Of a DNA stretch of 64,000 nt, positions 36,750-49,113 are shown piece after piece. Numbering within the stretch: position 1 is the stretch's first letter; the number at the start of each line of letters is the position of its first letter. The DNA lies in the NCBI GenBank assembly GCA_044368655.1, contig JBIPPB010000004.1, positions 566 to 64,565 on the forward strand. Reading direction: 5' to 3'. Below the pieces are notes generated by a model, which did not search any database, was not told where the DNA came from, and saw nothing but the letters and a program-made list of their open reading frames with translations. The DNA comes from Chitinophagales bacterium. Lineage in GTDB: Bacteria > Bacteroidota > Bacteroidia > Chitinophagales > JADJOU01. The position numbers and the translations under genes are program-made.

Positions 36750-38726
<1,977 letters not shown>

Positions 38727-41209: not shown

Positions 41210-42031
41210 ATGTATATAAAAAGTATCTTTATTGTTATTGCGTTCACAATTTTATCTTGTGGTAAAGATCCAGGAATTCCGGCCTTTATTTATTTGAAAA
41301 ATGCAAATATCTCAGGTCCTGCAAATTTCGGAGACATGGTACCTGATATTTATGGGTGTAAATTAGAAGTTGCCTCACAAAATAGAGGTTATTGGCAGTT
41401 TCCTTCTTTAGTTCCAGTTTTATTTCAAGATTCACAAGCCGTATCAATTTATCCATTAGTTAGGGTTAATAATTTGTCTACAAATTATGAAAGTTACCCG
41501 ATGTTAGAACCCTATTTCACTAATTTTTTTCTAGTACCAAAAAAAGTAGACACTATTTCGGTTCCTTTTAAATATAGTGAATCAGTTAAACTACTTATGA
41601 CGGATGGTTTTGAAGGAGGAAATCCTTTCGGAAATAGTAAAATCGTTTCAGCACTCGGACGAAATAATACGAATGCTTTACAAATAGATGTCGTTAGTTC
41701 AATGCAAGAATCATTAATTATGGCAATTAATAGTAATGAAGTGATTTGTAAACCAGGAAGTGAAATTTGGCTTGAATTTGACTATAAAATGACTAAAGGT
41801 GCTTTAATTCCTGCATTGTCTTACTCTGATGCTAATGGGAAACAAATTGATTTATATGCTCAGAACTTTTTAAAACCAAACGCTAATTTTACAAGAGTAT
41901 ATTGGAAGTTTTCTGAATTAGTTGGTGTCGCTAATGTAACAAATCTTAGATTAAATTTCATTTTACTTGCTGAGCAAGGACAAAAAGAAGCCACAACATT
42001 AATCGATAATATTCGATTATTGCAATTGTAA
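41210..42031 (+). CDS. Lipoprotein of unknown function with C-terminal CBM-like beta-sandwich
   Basis: Lipobox ILSC. WLEFDYK...IDNIRL ending. Confidence 0.6.
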   Translation: MYIKSIFIVIAFTILSCGKDPGIPAFIYLKNANISGPANFGDMVPDIYGCKLEVASQNRGYWQFPSLVPVLFQDSQAVSIYPLVRVNNLSTNYESYPMLEPYFTNFFLVPKKVDTISVPFKYSESVKLLMTDGFEGGNPFGNSKIVSALGRNNTNALQIDVVSSMQESLIMAINSNEVICKPGSEIWLEFDYKMTKGALIPALSYSDANGKQIDLYAQNFLKPNANFTRVYWKFSELVGVANVTNLRLNFILLAEQGQKEATTLIDNIRLLQL

Positions 42032-42038
42032 AGGCTTG

Positions 42039-42294
42039 TTAATCCAATCTAAATTCGACTTCATCTACCTTTGTTTTTTCTTCACATTTGCAATTGTATG
42101 CTTTTTAAAGTTCTTACAGTCGTTTTATAGAATTTTTGATAAAGACCTTCTTTAATTGTTTCATTTTATCGTTTTACTTGATAAACTTCAGACACATTTT
42201 TGCCACAATTTCGTATGATTACTTTATTAGGTTCTTGACTGTTTAATACTAAAGTAAATAGAATTAGAACACTACTTGTGATTAATTTTTTCAT
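42039..42294 (-). pseudogene. Degraded remnant of a secreted-protein gene
   Basis: MKKLITSSVLILFTLVLNSQE signal peptide. In-frame TAA at 42168-42166, after which the frame continues NETIKEGLYQKFYK and then breaks down. Confidence 0.5.
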
Positions 42295-42336
42295 AATATA
42301 AAATTTTAAACAAACATAACGTAAATATTATTTAGT

Positions 42337-42909
42337 TTATTTCATATAAAATCTATCTTCTTCCCACTTTAAAGGGTTATTGATGATATATTCCGAAATA
42401 TTATAATACGCTAGATCATTTCTAATAATATGTTCGTAATAATTTCGTTGCCAAAATTTTCCCATTACTTCATCTCTAGACTTATAAATTTCTAGGCAGC
42501 CATTCGCTACCAATGATTTATATGCACCCAAGATATCTGGAATTGAAGGATTTTTCCGTTGGGGGTCTGGTTGGGGCAACCCTTGCGGTTGCCCTTCATA
42601 TAATAGGTCAGGGGCGAGCCCTGACCCTACGGGTAACAACGATATAATTCCGTGTATATGATTGGGCATAATTTGAAAAACGTCCAATTCAAAATTTGAA
42701 AATCGATCTGCCAATTTAATCCATTCATTATATGCTATTAATCCAAATTCATTTAAAATCATTTCACCATTTATGACTTGTCCAAATCGATTAATTCTGT
42801 CTTGACAACAAATCGTTATAAAATATAGACCTGCCTTGGAGTAATCATATCCTTTTAATCGAATAGACCTCCTATTATGAATTTTTGGGTTGTATCGTTT
42901 CATTTTCAA
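42337..42909 (-). mobile_element. REP-associated tyrosine transposase (RAYT/TnpA-REP, IS200-like Y1 HUH)
   Basis: RRSIRLKGYDY...YFITIC, MPNHIHGI (HUH), GAYKS, WQRNYYEHIIR, YIINNP (catalytic Tyr). REP palindromes nearby. Confidence 0.9.
42570..42630. repeat. Intragenic inverted REP doublet
   Basis: Plus strand GTTG-GGGCAACC-CTTGC-GGTTGCCC (42570-42594). Minus strand GTAG-GGTCAGGG-CTCGC-CCCTGACC (42630-42606). Confidence 0.88.
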
Positions 42910-42971
42910 CGTTATATTATAAAATCAGAATCCAAAAATAAAAAAATATTTAAAAATATAAATATTTCTTC

Positions 42972-43138
42972 GTCGGGGTAATCTTAACGGTTATCCACCT
43001 ATTTTCTCTTTTCCCCCGTTGGGGCAACCCTTGCGGCTTCGTTGGGGCAACCCTTGCGGTTGCCCTTCTATCCCTCGCGTTGCCCCAATTAATATCTACG
43101 ATATTAATTGGGGGGTCAAGGGCAAGCCTTGACCCTAC
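42972..43138. repeat. REP/BIME-like palindrome cluster
   Basis: Degenerate copy 42972-42996, truncated copy 43018-43036, full copy 43041-43065, 14-bp hairpin 43083-43113, and a minus-strand GTAG REP 43114-43138. Confidence 0.88.
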
Positions 43139-43140
43139 GA

Positions 43141-46100
43141 TTAACGTTGAATCTGAACCTTTATCCCTTGCGTATGTGCCGAAAATTCGGGTGCATACAT
43201 ATTTTGGATGGTGGTGATGCCGTTGGAAAATGTTCCTGCATTATTGGCTTTGACATCATATTCAAAAACATATACACCAGGCTGCATATAACTGATGAAA
43301 AAATTGGTTGAGGCATCGCGCGTACTTTCGTAATAACCCAAACCGTCTTTCCATTTATAGCTCGAAAAGACATTTACCGGTTCAAATCCACTAGCTCGCA
43401 TATCTTTGAGATGAATATAACTCAAATCTCTATCGGACTGCAATACACAACGCACCGAAACAAGATCTCCGACTTTTATCGGTGTAGATTCTGTGATGGG
43501 TTGTAGCTGAACGCCTTTATCTGTATAGGTTTTTAGGTAAAGTTCTTTTTTTATTTTAAGATTGGTTTGTGCAGGCGTAATTTTGTCTAACTGTTCAAAA
43601 TATTGCCAAAACAACCCTCCATATAGAACCCCAGGACTTTTTTTCTCCACGTCTATCGTAGCAAGTGAGGGTTGAATATCCGCACCCTTCCAGCTTTTCT
43701 TGAAATACCCCGACACGTTGATTTCGCTAGGATCGTTGGCATTTTTAGGCGGGAAAACGGTCTCGCTTCCAGCTTTTACCGTGATGCCTTCTTCGGCATT
43801 GAGCCAATTTTTCCCTAATGAAAACAATGCATATACCGCTTCTGTCGTAGCTTTGGTAGTCGACCAGCGATTGTTTTGTTTGTTTTTGATGAGCCAAACT
43901 TTCATCAATTCCACACTTTTTTCATCTTTTGCTATTTCATCATACGCTTCTATCAACATCGTTTGTGTTTCGATAGGCGCTTGATACCAATACCATCCCG
44001 AAATGTTATCCTTCCAGTATTTCCCCATTTCATCACTCTCAACGCTTCGTTCATTTATAGCGTGTACAATTTTAGAAGCATCTTTTGTTCTTCCAAAACG
44101 GTTTAGCGTAAGCGCTAGCATCGCTCGGTAGCTCAAACCCGATTTAGATTCTTCTGCTAACAAATCATTGAAAACTTCATTTTGAATAGATCGATAAGAT
44201 GCAGGCATTGGTATGTTTTCTTTCCAAAAACTTCGCACATAAAAATAATGTAGCATAGAATAATAAAGCGATGAACGATCTTTTTTCTTGGTACGATTCC
44301 ATTCTGCTAACATCGTTTGATCACTGTAAACAATAGCTTTGTCTACCAAGTCTTGAATATCTTCTCCTAAAAGATTGGATGAATTAGCACCTAACATTTT
44401 CTGTAATTTACCAAATCCTCCAATGATATGATTGGTAATATAAACATCCTCTCGGCCTCCCTCAAACCAAGCAAAAGCACCGTTAGATTGCTGGCGTTTC
44501 AAGAGTTTTTCCTTTGCTTGTTGTAGTTCTTGACTCATTGTATTGAGGTCAAAAAAGAGTGCGATACGTTGCATTTGCTCCGTTTCTGATTGAGCTTGGC
44601 GCAACCAAGGAGTTTCTTCCAGTAACAAGGCCTTAAGTTCTTGATTTTTTTCAAGATTTGATATTTGAAGTCCTTTCTCGTTCCATTGATCAAACACTTT
44701 TTTAATCTTTGGCGATTGATTGAGCACCGCAGTTGAAATGGCATTTCCATACAAACGACTAAAAAGTTGCTCGCTACACTCATAAGGATATTCTCTCAAG
44801 TAGGGCAATGCGCCAATGACCGTCCAGAGTGGATTGGTCGTTAGTTCCAGAGTTAGATTAAAATTTTGGAGCGTTGCAGAGTTGTTGTTTTTCAATTTTT
44901 CAAGCACAAACGTCTTCGATTGATTTTCCCTTACGGAAATAGGTAACGTCTCGGTTACCAACATACGATTGGTGAGAATAGGCAATGTGTTCTCTTCGCC
45001 ATCGCTGAAATCTCCTGATTTTGCTATAACTCTGTACACTACTGCCTGATGCGTATAAGGTATTTGCACTTGCCAGTCGATATTCGTGTTCTCGCCTGCT
45101 TTTACCTCAAAGGTTTTGCGCGCATTCGTATTGCTAAAGGCTGCATCGATGGGTTTCATCGTAAACGCATCAAACCATTGTAGCTCCACTTCGCCCGTAA
45201 GGTTTTTGTCACTGAGGTTCGATATTTTGGAGCTAAATGTCAGTTGGTCGCCTTCACGAAGAAAACGAGGCGCATTAGGCACCACCATAAGGTCTTTTTG
45301 TGTCTGCACTTCAGACTTGAACAAGCCGTATTCAAGCTCTTGAGTATGAGCCAATAGCTGAAATTTCCATTTGGTCAAAGCTTCGGGTGTGGTAAATTGT
45401 ATTTTCACATTTCCCTCTTCATCGGTTATCAAGGTAGGAAAGAAAAATGCGGTTTCATTGAGATTGGTACGGATTTTGACTTGCGAAAGGTCTTGTTTTT
45501 TCTTAAACACATCTTCTTTGATTGCTTCAACAACTTTTGGAGGCACAAATTGAATGGTAGCTTTAGATTCAACTACTTTCATATCTTCAATGCTATTCAT
45601 TGGTGCCGCCGCCATCTCCATGCTTTTATACATCATACGTTCTCTTCTATAATTTTTTCCAAAATGAAATCCAAATAAATTGACTTGATTGTATTTTTCA
45701 GAAATAAATGATGGAAAGTAGTTATGAGGGTAGCCAGAGACAGAATTTAAATAATCAATTTTTATATTAATAAATTGAGAGTTGTAAAAACTTAAATTAT
45801 TATAATTGTAATAATCAAATGGATAAAAATTAATTTCGTTTATTACAAATTTATCCAAACTAGCGTCATACATGGTTGCTAACACTTCGGCAAACACCTT
45901 TTCTTTATCTTTTCCCGAAATGGTCATTTCCCAAGTTTCTTTAGCGCCCGGCAACAATTTATTTCTAAAAGTTTTGGTGCTTATTTTTAAATCATACTTT
46001 TTTTTCGGAAGAACATTTATTCTTATTTGATTGCTTATCATTTTGTTTTCACTCACAAAATAATAGTTCAAATTGGTTCCTAAATCATATCCCTCTTTAA

Positions 46101-49100
46101 TAGGGAATTCATAAACAGTTGTGCCATTCTGAAGCGGAATTGCTCTTTTATCTATCGATTTATTATCCGAAGAAAGTCCAATATAAATCATTCCATTTTC
46201 TATTCCCGAATGAAACGTGATTTTAGCCATGTCACCTATTTGATAATTGTATTTATCTTCATTTATAGTCAACAATTCATGATTCAAAACTCTTTTGGTC
46301 ACTTCGTCTTTGATGTCATATTTAGACGATGTCGTAATCGTGTCTTTTTCATAAATGGAAGAAGCTTCCGCAATATATTTCCCTGCCGTTAGATTTTTAA
46401 ATTGTAGAAGAACAGAGTCCGATATTTTTGAATCAAAAGGGGTTTCAAACACCAATTTGCGTTCCCAGTTAGTTTCATCTTGTTTGTTTTTGTCATACAT
46501 TTCAAATGGAAAGTTTTGTACAAAAGTAGATTCATCCATGGATTGATAATCTGCGTCTTCTGACAAGGCGTTAGGTTTTATTGTGCGATTCGGTTCTATG
46601 AGTTGATAAATCTTCAATATTCCTTTGACGGAAATGTGTTGTCCATTTAGATTTTCGGAGTGTATATTTAGTTTTTTCCAATTTCGGGTTGAATACGTAT
46701 TTTCTCCTACTATACTCAACTTTAGCGGTACGTCCCCAGCAATTACAGCGCTTTCGGTTGATTGTGTTTCTCCGTTTATATCCGTAACGTCAATATAAAG
46801 TGTGTATGAATAGCTTCGAGGCAACTCCTTTCTTGGCTCGCTTGTTTTGGTTTCAAACGAAATGGCAAAATTTCCTTTTCCGTCGGATTTGGTTTCTCCT
46901 TTTTCTATTTCTTCCGTTTTTGGTGCTCGATTATAATATCCATAACTTCTTTTCCAAAATCCCCAAGGTCTTTCGTAGAAAAATTGTTCCTCTCGCACGA
47001 TTCGATATTTTACTTTGGCATCTGTGATTCTAGCACCCGAAAAAGCCTGTGCCTGTCCTGAAACGGATATTTTTTGGTCTAATTTATAATTCTCTTTGAA
47101 TTCGTTCATTCTCACTTCAAATTTTGGACGTTTATATTCTTCTACTTTGAAGTCCATATCATTTACTTGAACGTAATCGGTATCATTATCTTCGTCTATT
47201 TCCATTACCAATATCTTAAGACTATAGTTTCCCGTCACCCCATCTTTTGGCAAAACAAAACTACCATTAACCGATCCAAAATCATTGGTAGTTAAACCCA
47301 AAGTAGCAATTTCTTTATAATTTGAATTTTTCAAAACCACTTGAACCGCCGTATTTTTCAAAATTTTAGCCGTATTTTTAAGTTTACTATACACAATGGC
47401 TTTAAAATATACCGTCTGCGTTGGACGATAAATGGCTCTATCTAAAAAAACGTCTGCATTCATTTTAGTTTCTGGTTCTTGTCTATAAAAATTGCTAAAA
47501 CGCTTGTTTCCAAGATCAATCCATTCATTGAACTGCTGGTCATAAATCCAGTATTGATTATCGTGATATTGATTGAGATTAAGACCTAATTTTTCATAAG
47601 GAATGTTTAAAAAACCCAAGTTATCTGTCTTTTGTGATGTTATTTTTGTTCTAAATTTATAAAAGTCAATCGTATGATAGGCTAGTGGCGCACCACTTTT
47701 TCTATCGACAAAGTGCAATTTTAATAATTTGCTGTTCTCTTCATTTTCAGAACTTTCATTTTCTAAAACCAGTATTTTGCTAACTTTAAACAGTGAGTAA
47801 TTGACAAAGTTTTTATTATCATCTCCTTCAAAGGCTTCATTGTTGGAAATAGCAATCGCATAATTTCCTGCACTAAGTCCATCTAATTTATAAATTGCCC
47901 TATGCTCTTCATAATCTTGAAATTCTTTTAATTCATACAATTTTGTGCGTTCAATTTTTCCATTTGTTTGTAATTTCTTATTGTTTTCTTTAATGTAAAT
48001 TTGATTTATCGTGTTTGTCGTTTCGGTCAAATTGTAGATTCGCACAAATACTTTTTCTATATTTCTATGGGTAATCAAAATTGGAATGGGCTGGTTAGGC
48101 AGCTCGGTTTGCTCCATTTTTAGGGTTGCCCATGGCCAAAGAATCGATTTTTCCACTTCTTTAACGTTTTTAATCCATGGTGAATTTGGATGTTTTTGTA
48201 GGGTTTCTTTGCAGATTTTCAGTGCTTTTTCTTTGTAGTTCGTTTCGTTTTTGTTAGGTAAGGTAGCGAAAATTTTGGCTATTTCAGCATAAATGACCGC
48301 ATTGAAATTTTCTTGAGGATATTCCATCGCTAACTGCGTCATTTCGCCAATATTGGATTCATTTTTTTCGATACTCGACAAACGCCAATTCAAATACGCC
48401 GCGATATTTCCATTTTCACGATGCATTTGTGCCAATTCGTATTTTTTATCAAGACACCATTGTTCGTTGTTTTTCTCCTCTTTGTCTTGAATATTAAAAT
48501 TGTTTTGCGTGTAAAATGAACTCATATTCCACAACAACATATCGTAGAGCGTTGGTTTGAGTTCGTTGATTTCTTTGGGGCTGATAATTTCTTTCCAATC
48601 GGCAAAAGAAGCTTCAAACAATTTATTTTTATCTTGAATTGAGTTTTTATACAGGCTGTCTATTTGCTCATAAAAATCGCGTTTTGTCCATTCTCTAAAA
48701 TCGGTTACTTTTCCCGCAACCTTGGTCCTTTCTTGTATTTCCCATTGTTTACTATTATAATATTGATAAAACATCTGCCCCAGAATATTTTGTAGTAAGG
48801 CTTTTTTTACACCATGGCTTTGAATTATTTCTTGAGTAAAATTTTTAACAATTACCACATCGGGTTCTTCTTTTTCTTCAAGGGTTTCGTAGAAAATTTT
48901 AGATTGAAAAAACAAGGCTTTTATCGTATGTGCATCTTTTTTATCCTTTCTTGATTGCTTTAAAAGTTCGTTGATTAAACTTAAATTGGATTTAAAATCG
49001 CCTTTTTGCTCTTTTTGGTCAATTTCTTTCCATTTTGCATCATAGTTGTAAGGCTGTGAAAATGCATTGAGAAATGAAAAGCAAAATGCGAGTGAAAAAG

Positions 49101-49113
49101 ATAGTATATTCAT
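43141..49113 (-). CDS. Bacterial alpha-2-macroglobulin family protein
   Basis: DRAIYRP.QTV.FK (MG2), VEEYKRP.F, ETAFFFP, P..LT.W, thioester motif YPYECSEQ, C-terminal MYAPEF. Confidence 0.92.
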   Translation of the reverse strand: MNILSFSLAFCFSFLNAFSQPYNYDAKWKEIDQKEQKGDFKSNLSLINELLKQSRKDKKDAHTIKALFFQSKIFYETLEEKEEPDVVIVKNFTQEIIQSHGVKKALLQNILGQMFYQYYNSKQWEIQERTKVAGKVTDFREWTKRDFYEQIDSLYKNSIQDKNKLFEASFADWKEIISPKEINELKPTLYDMLLWNMSSFYTQNNFNIQDKEEKNNEQWCLDKKYELAQMHRENGNIAAYLNWRLSSIEKNESNIGEMTQLAMEYPQENFNAVIYAEIAKIFATLPNKNETNYKEKALKICKETLQKHPNSPWIKNVKEVEKSILWPWATLKMEQTELPNQPIPILITHRNIEKVFVRIYNLTETTNTINQIYIKENNKKLQTNGKIERTKLYELKEFQDYEEHRAIYKLDGLSAGNYAIAISNNEAFEGDDNKNFVNYSLFKVSKILVLENESSENEENSKLLKLHFVDRKSGAPLAYHTIDFYKFRTKITSQKTDNLGFLNIPYEKLGLNLNQYHDNQYWIYDQQFNEWIDLGNKRFSNFYRQEPETKMNADVFLDRAIYRPTQTVYFKAIVYSKLKNTAKILKNTAVQVVLKNSNYKEIATLGLTTNDFGSVNGSFVLPKDGVTGNYSLKILVMEIDEDNDTDYVQVNDMDFKVEEYKRPKFEVRMNEFKENYKLDQKISVSGQAQAFSGARITDAKVKYRIVREEQFFYERPWGFWKRSYGYYNRAPKTEEIEKGETKSDGKGNFAISFETKTSEPRKELPRSYSYTLYIDVTDINGETQSTESAVIAGDVPLKLSIVGENTYSTRNWKKLNIHSENLNGQHISVKGILKIYQLIEPNRTIKPNALSEDADYQSMDESTFVQNFPFEMYDKNKQDETNWERKLVFETPFDSKISDSVLLQFKNLTAGKYIAEASSIYEKDTITTSSKYDIKDEVTKRVLNHELLTINEDKYNYQIGDMAKITFHSGIENGMIYIGLSSDNKSIDKRAIPLQNGTTVYEFPIKEGYDLGTNLNYYFVSENKMISNQIRINVLPKKKYDLKISTKTFRNKLLPGAKETWEMTISGKDKEKVFAEVLATMYDASLDKFVINEINFYPFDYYNYNNLSFYNSQFINIKIDYLNSVSGYPHNYFPSFISEKYNQVNLFGFHFGKNYRRERMMYKSMEMAAAPMNSIEDMKVVESKATIQFVPPKVVEAIKEDVFKKKQDLSQVKIRTNLNETAFFFPTLITDEEGNVKIQFTTPEALTKWKFQLLAHTQELEYGLFKSEVQTQKDLMVVPNAPRFLREGDQLTFSSKISNLSDKNLTGEVELQWFDAFTMKPIDAAFSNTNARKTFEVKAGENTNIDWQVQIPYTHQAVVYRVIAKSGDFSDGEENTLPILTNRMLVTETLPISVRENQSKTFVLEKLKNNNSATLQNFNLTLELTTNPLWTVIGALPYLREYPYECSEQLFSRLYGNAISTAVLNQSPKIKKVFDQWNEKGLQISNLEKNQELKALLLEETPWLRQAQSETEQMQRIALFFDLNTMSQELQQAKEKLLKRQQSNGAFAWFEGGREDVYITNHIIGGFGKLQKMLGANSSNLLGEDIQDLVDKAIVYSDQTMLAEWNRTKKKDRSSLYYSMLHYFYVRSFWKENIPMPASYRSIQNEVFNDLLAEESKSGLSYRAMLALTLNRFGRTKDASKIVHAINERSVESDEMGKYWKDNISGWYWYQAPIETQTMLIEAYDEIAKDEKSVELMKVWLIKNKQNNRWSTTKATTEAVYALFSLGKNWLNAEEGITVKAGSETVFPPKNANDPSEINVSGYFKKSWKGADIQPSLATIDVEKKSPGVLYGGLFWQYFEQLDKITPAQTNLKIKKELYLKTYTDKGVQLQPITESTPIKVGDLVSVRCVLQSDRDLSYIHLKDMRASGFEPVNVFSSYKWKDGLGYYESTRDASTNFFISYMQPGVYVFEYDVKANNAGTFSNGITTIQNMYAPEFSAHTQGIKVQIQR

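Follow-up and report, generated by a model that had tools for sequence, protein, structure and literature searches.

A GTTG-footed REP type paired with a GTAG-footed partner inside and upstream of a subclass 2.4 RAYT gene in a Chitinophagales bacterium

RAYT enzymes (TnpA_REP) bind single-stranded REP hairpins, and the third and fourth bases of the GTAG foot, A3 and G4, were proposed to select cleavage between C and T in the available parts of two studies (Messing 2012, PMC3479197; Corneloup 2021, PMC8266576). In the stretch of Chitinophagales DNA analysed here (64,000 nucleotides, referred to as the window), one RAYT gene is accompanied by four REP hairpins of two types, one with a GTAG foot and the other with a GTTG foot. 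This arrangement raises a question. Does GTTG serve the enzyme as a guide of another specificity, or is it a one-base variant that is carried along with a working GTAG partner?

The initial annotation had described two 25-nt elements of one design, with a 4-nt foot, an 8-bp stem and a 5-nt loop, and all four copies were recovered where it had placed them. Type A consists of a GTTG foot, the stem GGGCAACC and a CTTGC loop on the plus strand, and type B of a GTAG foot, a GGTCA(G/A)GG stem and a CT(C/T)GC loop on the minus strand. Both inverted A...B pairs, at 42570-42630 and 43041-43138, are likewise present, with spacers of 11 nt in the intragenic pair and 48 nt in the upstream pair. The idea that both pairs flank the gene had to be given up, since the pair at 42570-42630 lies in frame inside the RAYT open reading frame, where it makes up codons 94-114 between the HUH and WQ motifs. 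The two type A copies agree over 28 nt without a difference. The stem base is built of three G-C pairs in type A (GGG/CCC) and of two only in type B (GGT/ACC); GGTC stems like that of type B are also seen at the loci of two relatives (L006 and L145). Each of the four REPs folds into an 8-bp stem with a 5-nt loop, and the two intragenic ones, folded alone, both give a z-score of about -4. The region 42337-43138 holds four perfect 8-bp hairpins with a GTNG foot, compared with a mean of 0.004 and a maximum of 1 in 2000 mononucleotide shuffles, and nine such hairpins were counted in the entire 2.5-Mb assembly. Contigs from four of 20 sequencing runs, which as contigs lose rare variants and were compared over the gene part of the locus, show neither joints nor indels. 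From run X2, which is possibly not independent of the source sample, a contig spanning 42478-42673 shows 0 differences, which makes an assembly slip unlikely as the source of the intragenic GTTG. The features of the locus are collected in Table 1.

Table 1. Features at and around the RAYT gene, in window coordinates.
Feature	Position	Strand	Basis or remark
RAYT / TnpA_REP gene, assigned to subclass 2.4	42337..42909	-	ORF, profile matches, 4ER8 match
HUH motif NHIH (His84, His86)	42652..42663	-	N83, H84 and H86 invariant in 47 aligned proteins
Tyr174 of YIINNP, predicted catalytic tyrosine	42388..42390	-	invariant; aligns with the YINP tyrosine of E. coli RayT
Type B REP, intragenic, GTAG foot	42606..42630	- (coding strand)	in frame, from codon 94, encodes VGSGLAPD
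Type A REP, intragenic, GTTG foot	42570..42594	+ (antisense to gene)	in frame, from codon 106, encodes GQPQGLPQ
Type A REP, upstream, GTTG foot	43041..43065	+	sequence
Type B REP, upstream, GTAG foot	43114..43138	-	begins 3 nt past the alpha-2-macroglobulin stop codon
Degenerate 12-nt partial A foot, beginning GTTG, intragenic	42558..42569	+	sequence, alignment
Degenerate A-like hairpin, GTCG foot, two G-T wobbles	42972..42996	+	weak fold, z 0.16
23-nt tandem partial A copy (GTTG foot, 5' arm, loop)	43018..43040	+	sequence
AT-rich 14-bp hairpin in upstream A-B spacer	43083..43113		sequence, fold
Bacterial alpha-2-macroglobulin gene, conserved upstream anchor of the locus	43141..49113	-	Pfam bMG10, A2M, MG2

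The predicted protein has 190 residues from a TTG start, or 188 from the ATG at 42903. It carries the motifs NHIH (residues 83-86), WQ (153-154) and YIINNP (174-179), and His84, His86, Trp153, Gln154 and Tyr174 are invariant across 47 aligned proteins (the RAYT of the window and 46 of the 120 matches listed). In the same alignment the REP-encoded segment is hypervariable. The protein matches Pfam Y1_Tnp and scores 59 bits with the RAYT model NF047646, below the cut-off of 80 because the match is split by the REP insert; the IS200 model gives 14 bits against a cut-off of 55. BLASTP is in agreement: it finds E. coli RayT at an E-value of 1e-7 and gives nothing significant with the IS200-model protein of this genome. 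Thus, as had been supposed, the protein is a RAYT rather than an ordinary IS200 TnpA. The enzyme core is under purifying selection as judged from the coding sequences, with a dN/dS of 0.07-0.21 at a dS of 0.16-0.76 in comparison with two relatives' loci, L021 and L022, whose repeats are the same as those of the G002 and G001 genomes below and were not counted as independent of them. The insert differs in length among members of the clade through the duplication of pieces that stem from A and B, and would sit in a surface loop of the protein according to the model of Quentin.

Two other Y1 genes occur in the source genome (G000). One of them (contig C36, 11913-12266; L275) is RAYT-like with 45 bits, and its annotated ORF begins near the HUH motif; the other (contig C154, 7042-7371; L278) is above the IS200 cut-off, and its YIENQAEHH fits subclass 1.2 as outlined by Quentin. 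Neither gene has a perfect hairpin of at least 8 bp in its vicinity. In genome G019 (C12:40641-42821; L005 and L018), the halves of the RAYT match lie about 1.7 kb apart, which points to a split gene or a large insertion at the REP site.

By its motifs and its in-frame REPs, which together are the published hallmark, the gene is assigned to TnpA_REP subclass 2.4, or RAYT Group 4. Table 1 of Quentin et al. (2018, PMC6006769) gives NH[IFV]H, WQ and YIxNNP for this subclass, and NHIH, WQ and YIINNP are all present here. In the parts of that paper at hand, in-frame REPs between HuH and Y are a unique trait of subclass 2.4, and more than one REP subfamily lies beside nearly half of the 2.4 genes. 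The REP insert of the window is in frame, variable in length and located between HuH and Y, and the two GTAG-footed B copies provide the GT[AG]G REP less than 1 kb from the gene. The layout, with one REP pair in frame and another upstream, is already published for the subclass. Further likenesses to the subclass, as it is described there, are a length near 194 aa, the occurrence in Bacteroidota, 25-nt REPs both flanking and in frame and several REP types per gene; genome-wide repeat counts are low, as was found for Group 4. Type A equals the REP of the 2.4 gene ChutA01 / ABG58622.1 in Table S1 (row 143, with a GTAG foot) save for foot position 3. Different from subclass 2.4 at large, GTTG is found here on every full A copy and is fixed in a small clade, whereas it makes up minor rows of Table S1; the third stem pair of type B is T-A, and type B lacks the three-G-C stem base of the canonical long REP, which type A has; and the REPs are confined to the gene itself and the region upstream of it. 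A rapidly built tree of 93 rows groups the RAYT at 100% support with L021, L022 and L222, among relatives with NHxH, WQ and YIxxNP motifs. This tree does not place subclasses, since it holds no published 2.4 reference protein and the branches leading to its three reference outgroups are extremely long, at about 10 changes per column.

Compared with E. coli TnpA_REP (RayT, 4ER8; subclass 2.2), the locus has in common the HUH-Y1 core, the WQ motif, inverted pairs of two REP types and the GTAG foot (type B). The two proteins share 21% identity; unlike the E. coli system, the locus has perfect 8-bp stems without a bulge, no long C-terminal tail of the protein, REPs within the gene and no genome-wide BIME population. 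Two enzymes of Group 3 (subclass 2.5) are also similar in part, TnpA_Sm in its short perfect hairpin, whose foot immediately precedes the stem on the 5' side, and TnpA_Mb in the concentration of REPs near the gene. In the work on these two as available, the GTTG foot is an engineered mutant, whereas here it is natural (Corneloup 2021, PMC8266576).

Is the locus part of a BIME/REPIN-like system in a Bacteroidota genome, as had been proposed by the initial annotation, which named occurrence at this locus only as evidence to the contrary? The Bacteroidota setting is right, the nearest syntenic relatives being labelled Chitinophagales, Bacteroidota, and the REPs do stand in inverted A/B pairs; what failed is the dispersed family. 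With up to 5 mismatches allowed to A and up to 6 to B, no match was found outside contig C131 of the source genome. The 16- and 21-mers that this genome repeats most often are unrelated to the REPs, and tblastn gives one strong match, that is, a single RAYT of this kind. In the congeners G001 and G002, five A and five B matches were found, all at the RAYT gene, and the three other congeners of the five searched gave no A or B match. The count of both REP types thus ended at the locus itself in G000, G001 and G002, the assemblies of which are 93% (in 173 contigs), 79% and 100% complete and may leave repeats unassembled. With no copy away from the gene in these three genomes, the locus is a local REPtron rather than a genome-wide BIME/REPIN system, and a genome-wide REP family is rejected for the searched assemblies. 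This is in accord with earlier work. For Group 4, flanking 16-mers were given a mean of 14 copies, compared with 57 for Group 2 and 140 for Group 3, in the consulted portion of Bertels et al. (2017, PMC5581495), and REPINs go with Groups 2 and 3 only in that of a later preprint (10.1101/2021.07.10.451892).

A-like stems are dispersed in six genomes of the genus g194 (G431, G448, G478, G635, G461 and G404), with 9-23 exact copies per genome and nearly all with a GTAG foot. With exact copy numbers reaching 23 in parts of the phylum, REPs of the subclass can spread elsewhere, though not here.

Upstream of the RAYT, the same alpha-2-macroglobulin gene recurs in L021 and L022, with a flank identity of 84-95%. 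The RAYT together with its REPs is likely a vertically inherited REPtron, and the gene shows the single copy, the fixed site and the purifying selection by which a domesticated Y1 is recognised. The pairing of two REP types, which the initial annotation had singled out, is real and at the same time ordinary for the subclass: an A-like and a B-like hairpin occur together, by eye, at 18 loci among 78 relatives outside the clade (for example L025, L026, L041, L047, L049, L068 and L072), nearly all with GTAG feet.

Besides the full REPs, the locus contains pieces of them. The 12-nt piece at 42558-42569 presumably came by duplication, and the 23-nt partial A unit is present once in the window, twice in L021 and in no intact copy in L022. 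The degenerate hairpin at 42972-42996 is the sole terminator-like match of a terminator scan, and one of its wobbles is perfectly paired in L021. The AT-rich hairpin at 43083-43113, directly behind the upstream B, keeps its pairing via paired substitutions in L021 and L022, as seen by eye. Variation is seen on the 3' side of the locus. Behind the RAYT gene, relatives have a small ORF (L021:3624-3983 and L022:5152-5487), about 1.4 kb of extra DNA lies 3' of the gene in L022, and a stretch within 42000-42330 of the window matches the small ORF of the relatives and holds no listed ORF. Elsewhere in the window, the product of ORF 36759-38726 looks like a DNA gyrase / topoisomerase B subunit, and the ORFs that come next presumably resemble RsfS and FtsH.

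How unusual, then, is the GTTG foot? Every full A copy of G000, G001 and G002 has it, L222 has it too, and by sequence the foot is both conserved and fixed throughout the clade. Of 24 proteins, 23 have GLPQ rather than GLPL, and the remaining one falls outside the clade; GLPQ tells only that the codon is not Leu. At 92 protein-picked RAYT loci of relatives, GTTG accounts for 6 of 176 near-GTAG leaders, with GTAC (13) and ATAG (9) ahead of it and the other position-3 variants being GTGG (1) and GTCG (2); a raw count of 27/254 was set aside, as the clade itself and GTAG hairpins read in mirror orientation had been counted in. GTTG is found on 2 of the 18 different A stems of viral contigs, on 0 of 91 copies among the matches listed (80 GTAG; 27 more unlisted) in about 300 other genomes of the phylum, and on 1 of 36 copies in 201 genomes of another phylum. 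The exact GTTG-A is present in 5 of 401 genomes of the order, with at most 2 exact copies in any. By these searches, which used exact patterns of the A stem with B-like stems added in the set of about 300, no dispersed GTTG family was found in the 401, about 300 and 201 genomes. A metagenome scan, which selected on GTTG and therefore yields no rate, gave at least 121 stretches with GTTG REPs, some of them with GTTG...CAAC double feet or GTTG doublets. A RAYT lies near 42 of 124 GTTG-picked loci. On a tree of 90 RAYTs the GTTG label requires 14 changes, at least 3 of which are forced by well-supported branches. GTTG recurs widely, and its being a lineage-specific invention is rejected. Position 3 of the A foot also goes to C, in the 42972 hairpin and in L131 and L156. 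The foot might be templated by the CAAC that lies inside the A stem, but GTTG feet are also found on stems without CAAC (L032, L035 and L058). Among 32 GTTG-bearing RAYT loci, a GTAG hairpin is present as well at 22, while the other 10 have none in the examined DNA, which is short for many of them, and several of these have double-foot GTTG...CAAC REPs. The segment WQRNYYEHIIR, which contacts the guide, is the commonest form in the GTTG and non-GTTG groups alike; no co-adaptation of the protein to GTTG was seen in the WQ..R motif.

The GTTG leader, described initially as non-canonical, is real, and is to be seen as a derived and recurrent one-base variant that already stands in minor rows of Table S1 of Quentin et al. 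(PMC6006769). In that table, as available, three 2.4 rows have GTTG feet, one of them on a typical hairpin, and further feet are GTCG, GCAG, GTAC, GTAT and ATAG. The automatic REP search described in that paper demanded a GTAG or GTGG foot. GTTG has 0 occurrences in its main text and is absent from the main text of Di Nocera 2013 (PMC3733652), and a full-text literature search for GTTG REPs, with subscription papers mostly outside its reach, had Corneloup 2021 as its sole match. Judged from the sequences, GTTG is a minor foot variant that has appeared repeatedly and, within one small clade, is fixed on one of the two partners.

Several side observations concern GTTG in other lineages. In an unrelated GC-rich lineage (L115, L137, L152, L164, L170 and L174), a 72-nt GTTG-A / GTAG-B tandem array lies within the RAYT region, and its neighbours in the tree (L112, L132, L153, L195, L201, L217 and L228) have double-foot GTTG...CAAC REPs and no GTAG hairpin in the examined DNA. 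This lineage and its neighbours are the best place to seek a true GTTG system. GTTG doublets or clusters are also found in L150, L158, L141, L157, L183 and L139, with no RAYT match in the examined DNA, and GTTG-footed REPs in doublets or clusters in L200 and L213, which were seen only as sequence contexts.

In comparison with L022, at a dS of 0.64, the upstream B differs at 0 of 25 bases and the upstream A at 4 of 25, two of which are a compensatory pair, while about 43% would be expected neutrally (P 0.004 for the upstream A). So few differences mean that the A hairpin is maintained by selection or copy correction and is not simply decaying; for foot position 3 by itself, no change would be seen with a probability of 57%. 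Of the intragenic copies, A differs from L022 at 1 base and B at 3. None of the three congeners has lost the unpaired GTAG foot of the upstream B. In runs X3 and X5, the contigs have the alternative form of B at the intragenic position, with two compensating changes in the stem. This points to exchange among the B copies.

We consider it probable that the gene is a single-copy 2.4 RAYT, likely inherited vertically, whose GTAG-B hairpins are likely cleaved, and that GTTG-A is likely bound or carried along and poorly cut. By analogy with other RAYTs, the HUH-Y1 enzyme would bind the single-stranded hairpin, A3G4 of the GTAG foot would pick the site between C and T, and cut-and-rejoin or slippage would duplicate A/B units locally. 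The change from A to T at foot position 3 may have arisen once, in the ancestor of the clade, and local copying would have carried GTTG to both the intragenic and the upstream A copies. Type B would be the working substrate, and type A would be copied locally along with it. The in-frame pair would be tolerated because it falls in the variable loop between HUH and Tyr. In the published work on TnpA_Sm, as available, a GTTG substrate was bound and not cleaved (Corneloup 2021, PMC8266576). What counts against this explanation is the retention of GTTG-A in three congeners, the 10 of 32 loci without a GTAG hairpin, the excess of GTTG over GTGG and GTCG among position-3 variants, the tolerance of TnpA_Mb to foot changes, the possible lack of repeats in the assembly and the two-G-C stem base of type B.

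A competing view is that GTTG is a reprogrammed or bind-only guide that evolved repeatedly on the antisense partner of the REP pair belonging to 2.4 RAYTs themselves, which we regard as doubtful. In one form of it, GTTG would be a working alternative guide, with B substrates cut between C and T and A substrates between C and A, so that the two make a REP doublet of two specificities. Under the rule proposed for the guide, foot positions 3 and 4 set the cut dinucleotide, and TnpA_Mb tolerated changed feet and was redirected in its cutting, according to the available text of Corneloup 2021 (PMC8266576); the inverted GTTG foot reads CAAC and so contains a C-A step of its own; and GTTG is fixed in the clade and found in the metagenome stretches with double feet or doublets. 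This is nevertheless quite unlikely in view of the lack of a dispersed GTTG family in the genomes searched, the unchanged WQ..R motif of the protein and the loss of TnpA_Sm cleavage with GTTG in the same study. Unlikely, too, is the selection of GTTG for self-protection or autoregulation, in which CTAC on the coding strand would become CAAC beside an active B and leave a site for binding only. Here the conserved A hairpins would fit, and so would the strand on which GTTG lies: GTTG-A is antisense to the nearby RAYT at 25 of 27 loci, compared with 37 of 54 copies of GTAG-A (p 0.024), and at loci not picked by leader, position-3 variants number 8 of 90 antisense and 1 of 92 sense (p 0.018). However, the first bias loses significance with one vote per lineage, lineages being set by eye (17:2, p 0.13); position 3 was picked as the test after inspection of the data, and all leader variants pooled are about equal on both strands. 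Moreover, many more CT dinucleotides lie nearby, and GTAG stands on both strands in most relatives. GTAC, the commonest non-GTAG foot at the protein-picked loci, leans to the coding strand apart from double-foot cases, and position-3 variants lean antisense.

The hairpins might also no longer serve the enzyme, being RNA structures (at the 3' end of the alpha-2-macroglobulin transcript or in the control of RAYT expression) or products of palindrome correction, to which the feet would be irrelevant. The upstream B, located 3 nt past the alpha-2-macroglobulin stop codon and followed by a second conserved hairpin, the compensatory stem changes and the lack of REP dispersal are in line with this, but the retention of the unpaired GTAG foot of upstream B in three congeners and the purifying selection on the enzyme core are hard to account for, and the terminator scan found no T-run of terminator type behind the upstream B. 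We hold this to be very unlikely. An insertion sequence of the IS200/IS605 type with the hairpins as its ends is largely refuted and extremely improbable. The TnpA of such elements does belong to the same HUH-Y1 superfamily (Pfam Y1_Tnp) and recognises hairpins with a 4-nt guide; in contrast, the protein of the window fails the IS200 model, its gene is single copy and stays at the same site in congeners at a dS of about 0.7, the motif is the RAYT-type YIxNNP, no hairpin was found 3' of the gene, and there is no terminal hairpin pair.

With GTTG-A taken as bound or carried beside a working GTAG-B, the locus is an ordinary case of a published oddity, a RAYT gene with its own in-frame REPs. If GTTG were instead a reprogrammed or bind-only guide, the pair would be asymmetric, with a hairpin cut between C and T next to one that is either cut between C and A or acts as a decoy shielding or regulating the gene of the enzyme itself, and searches for GT[AG]G only would overlook GTTG REPs. 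Catalogues of REPs based on GT[AG]G would be incomplete if GTTG is functional or selected. Natural GTAG and GTTG hairpins beside one intact 2.4 enzyme offer a test case for the REP foot as a cleavage guide, and the locus also bears on why RAYTs persist when their REPs do not spread.
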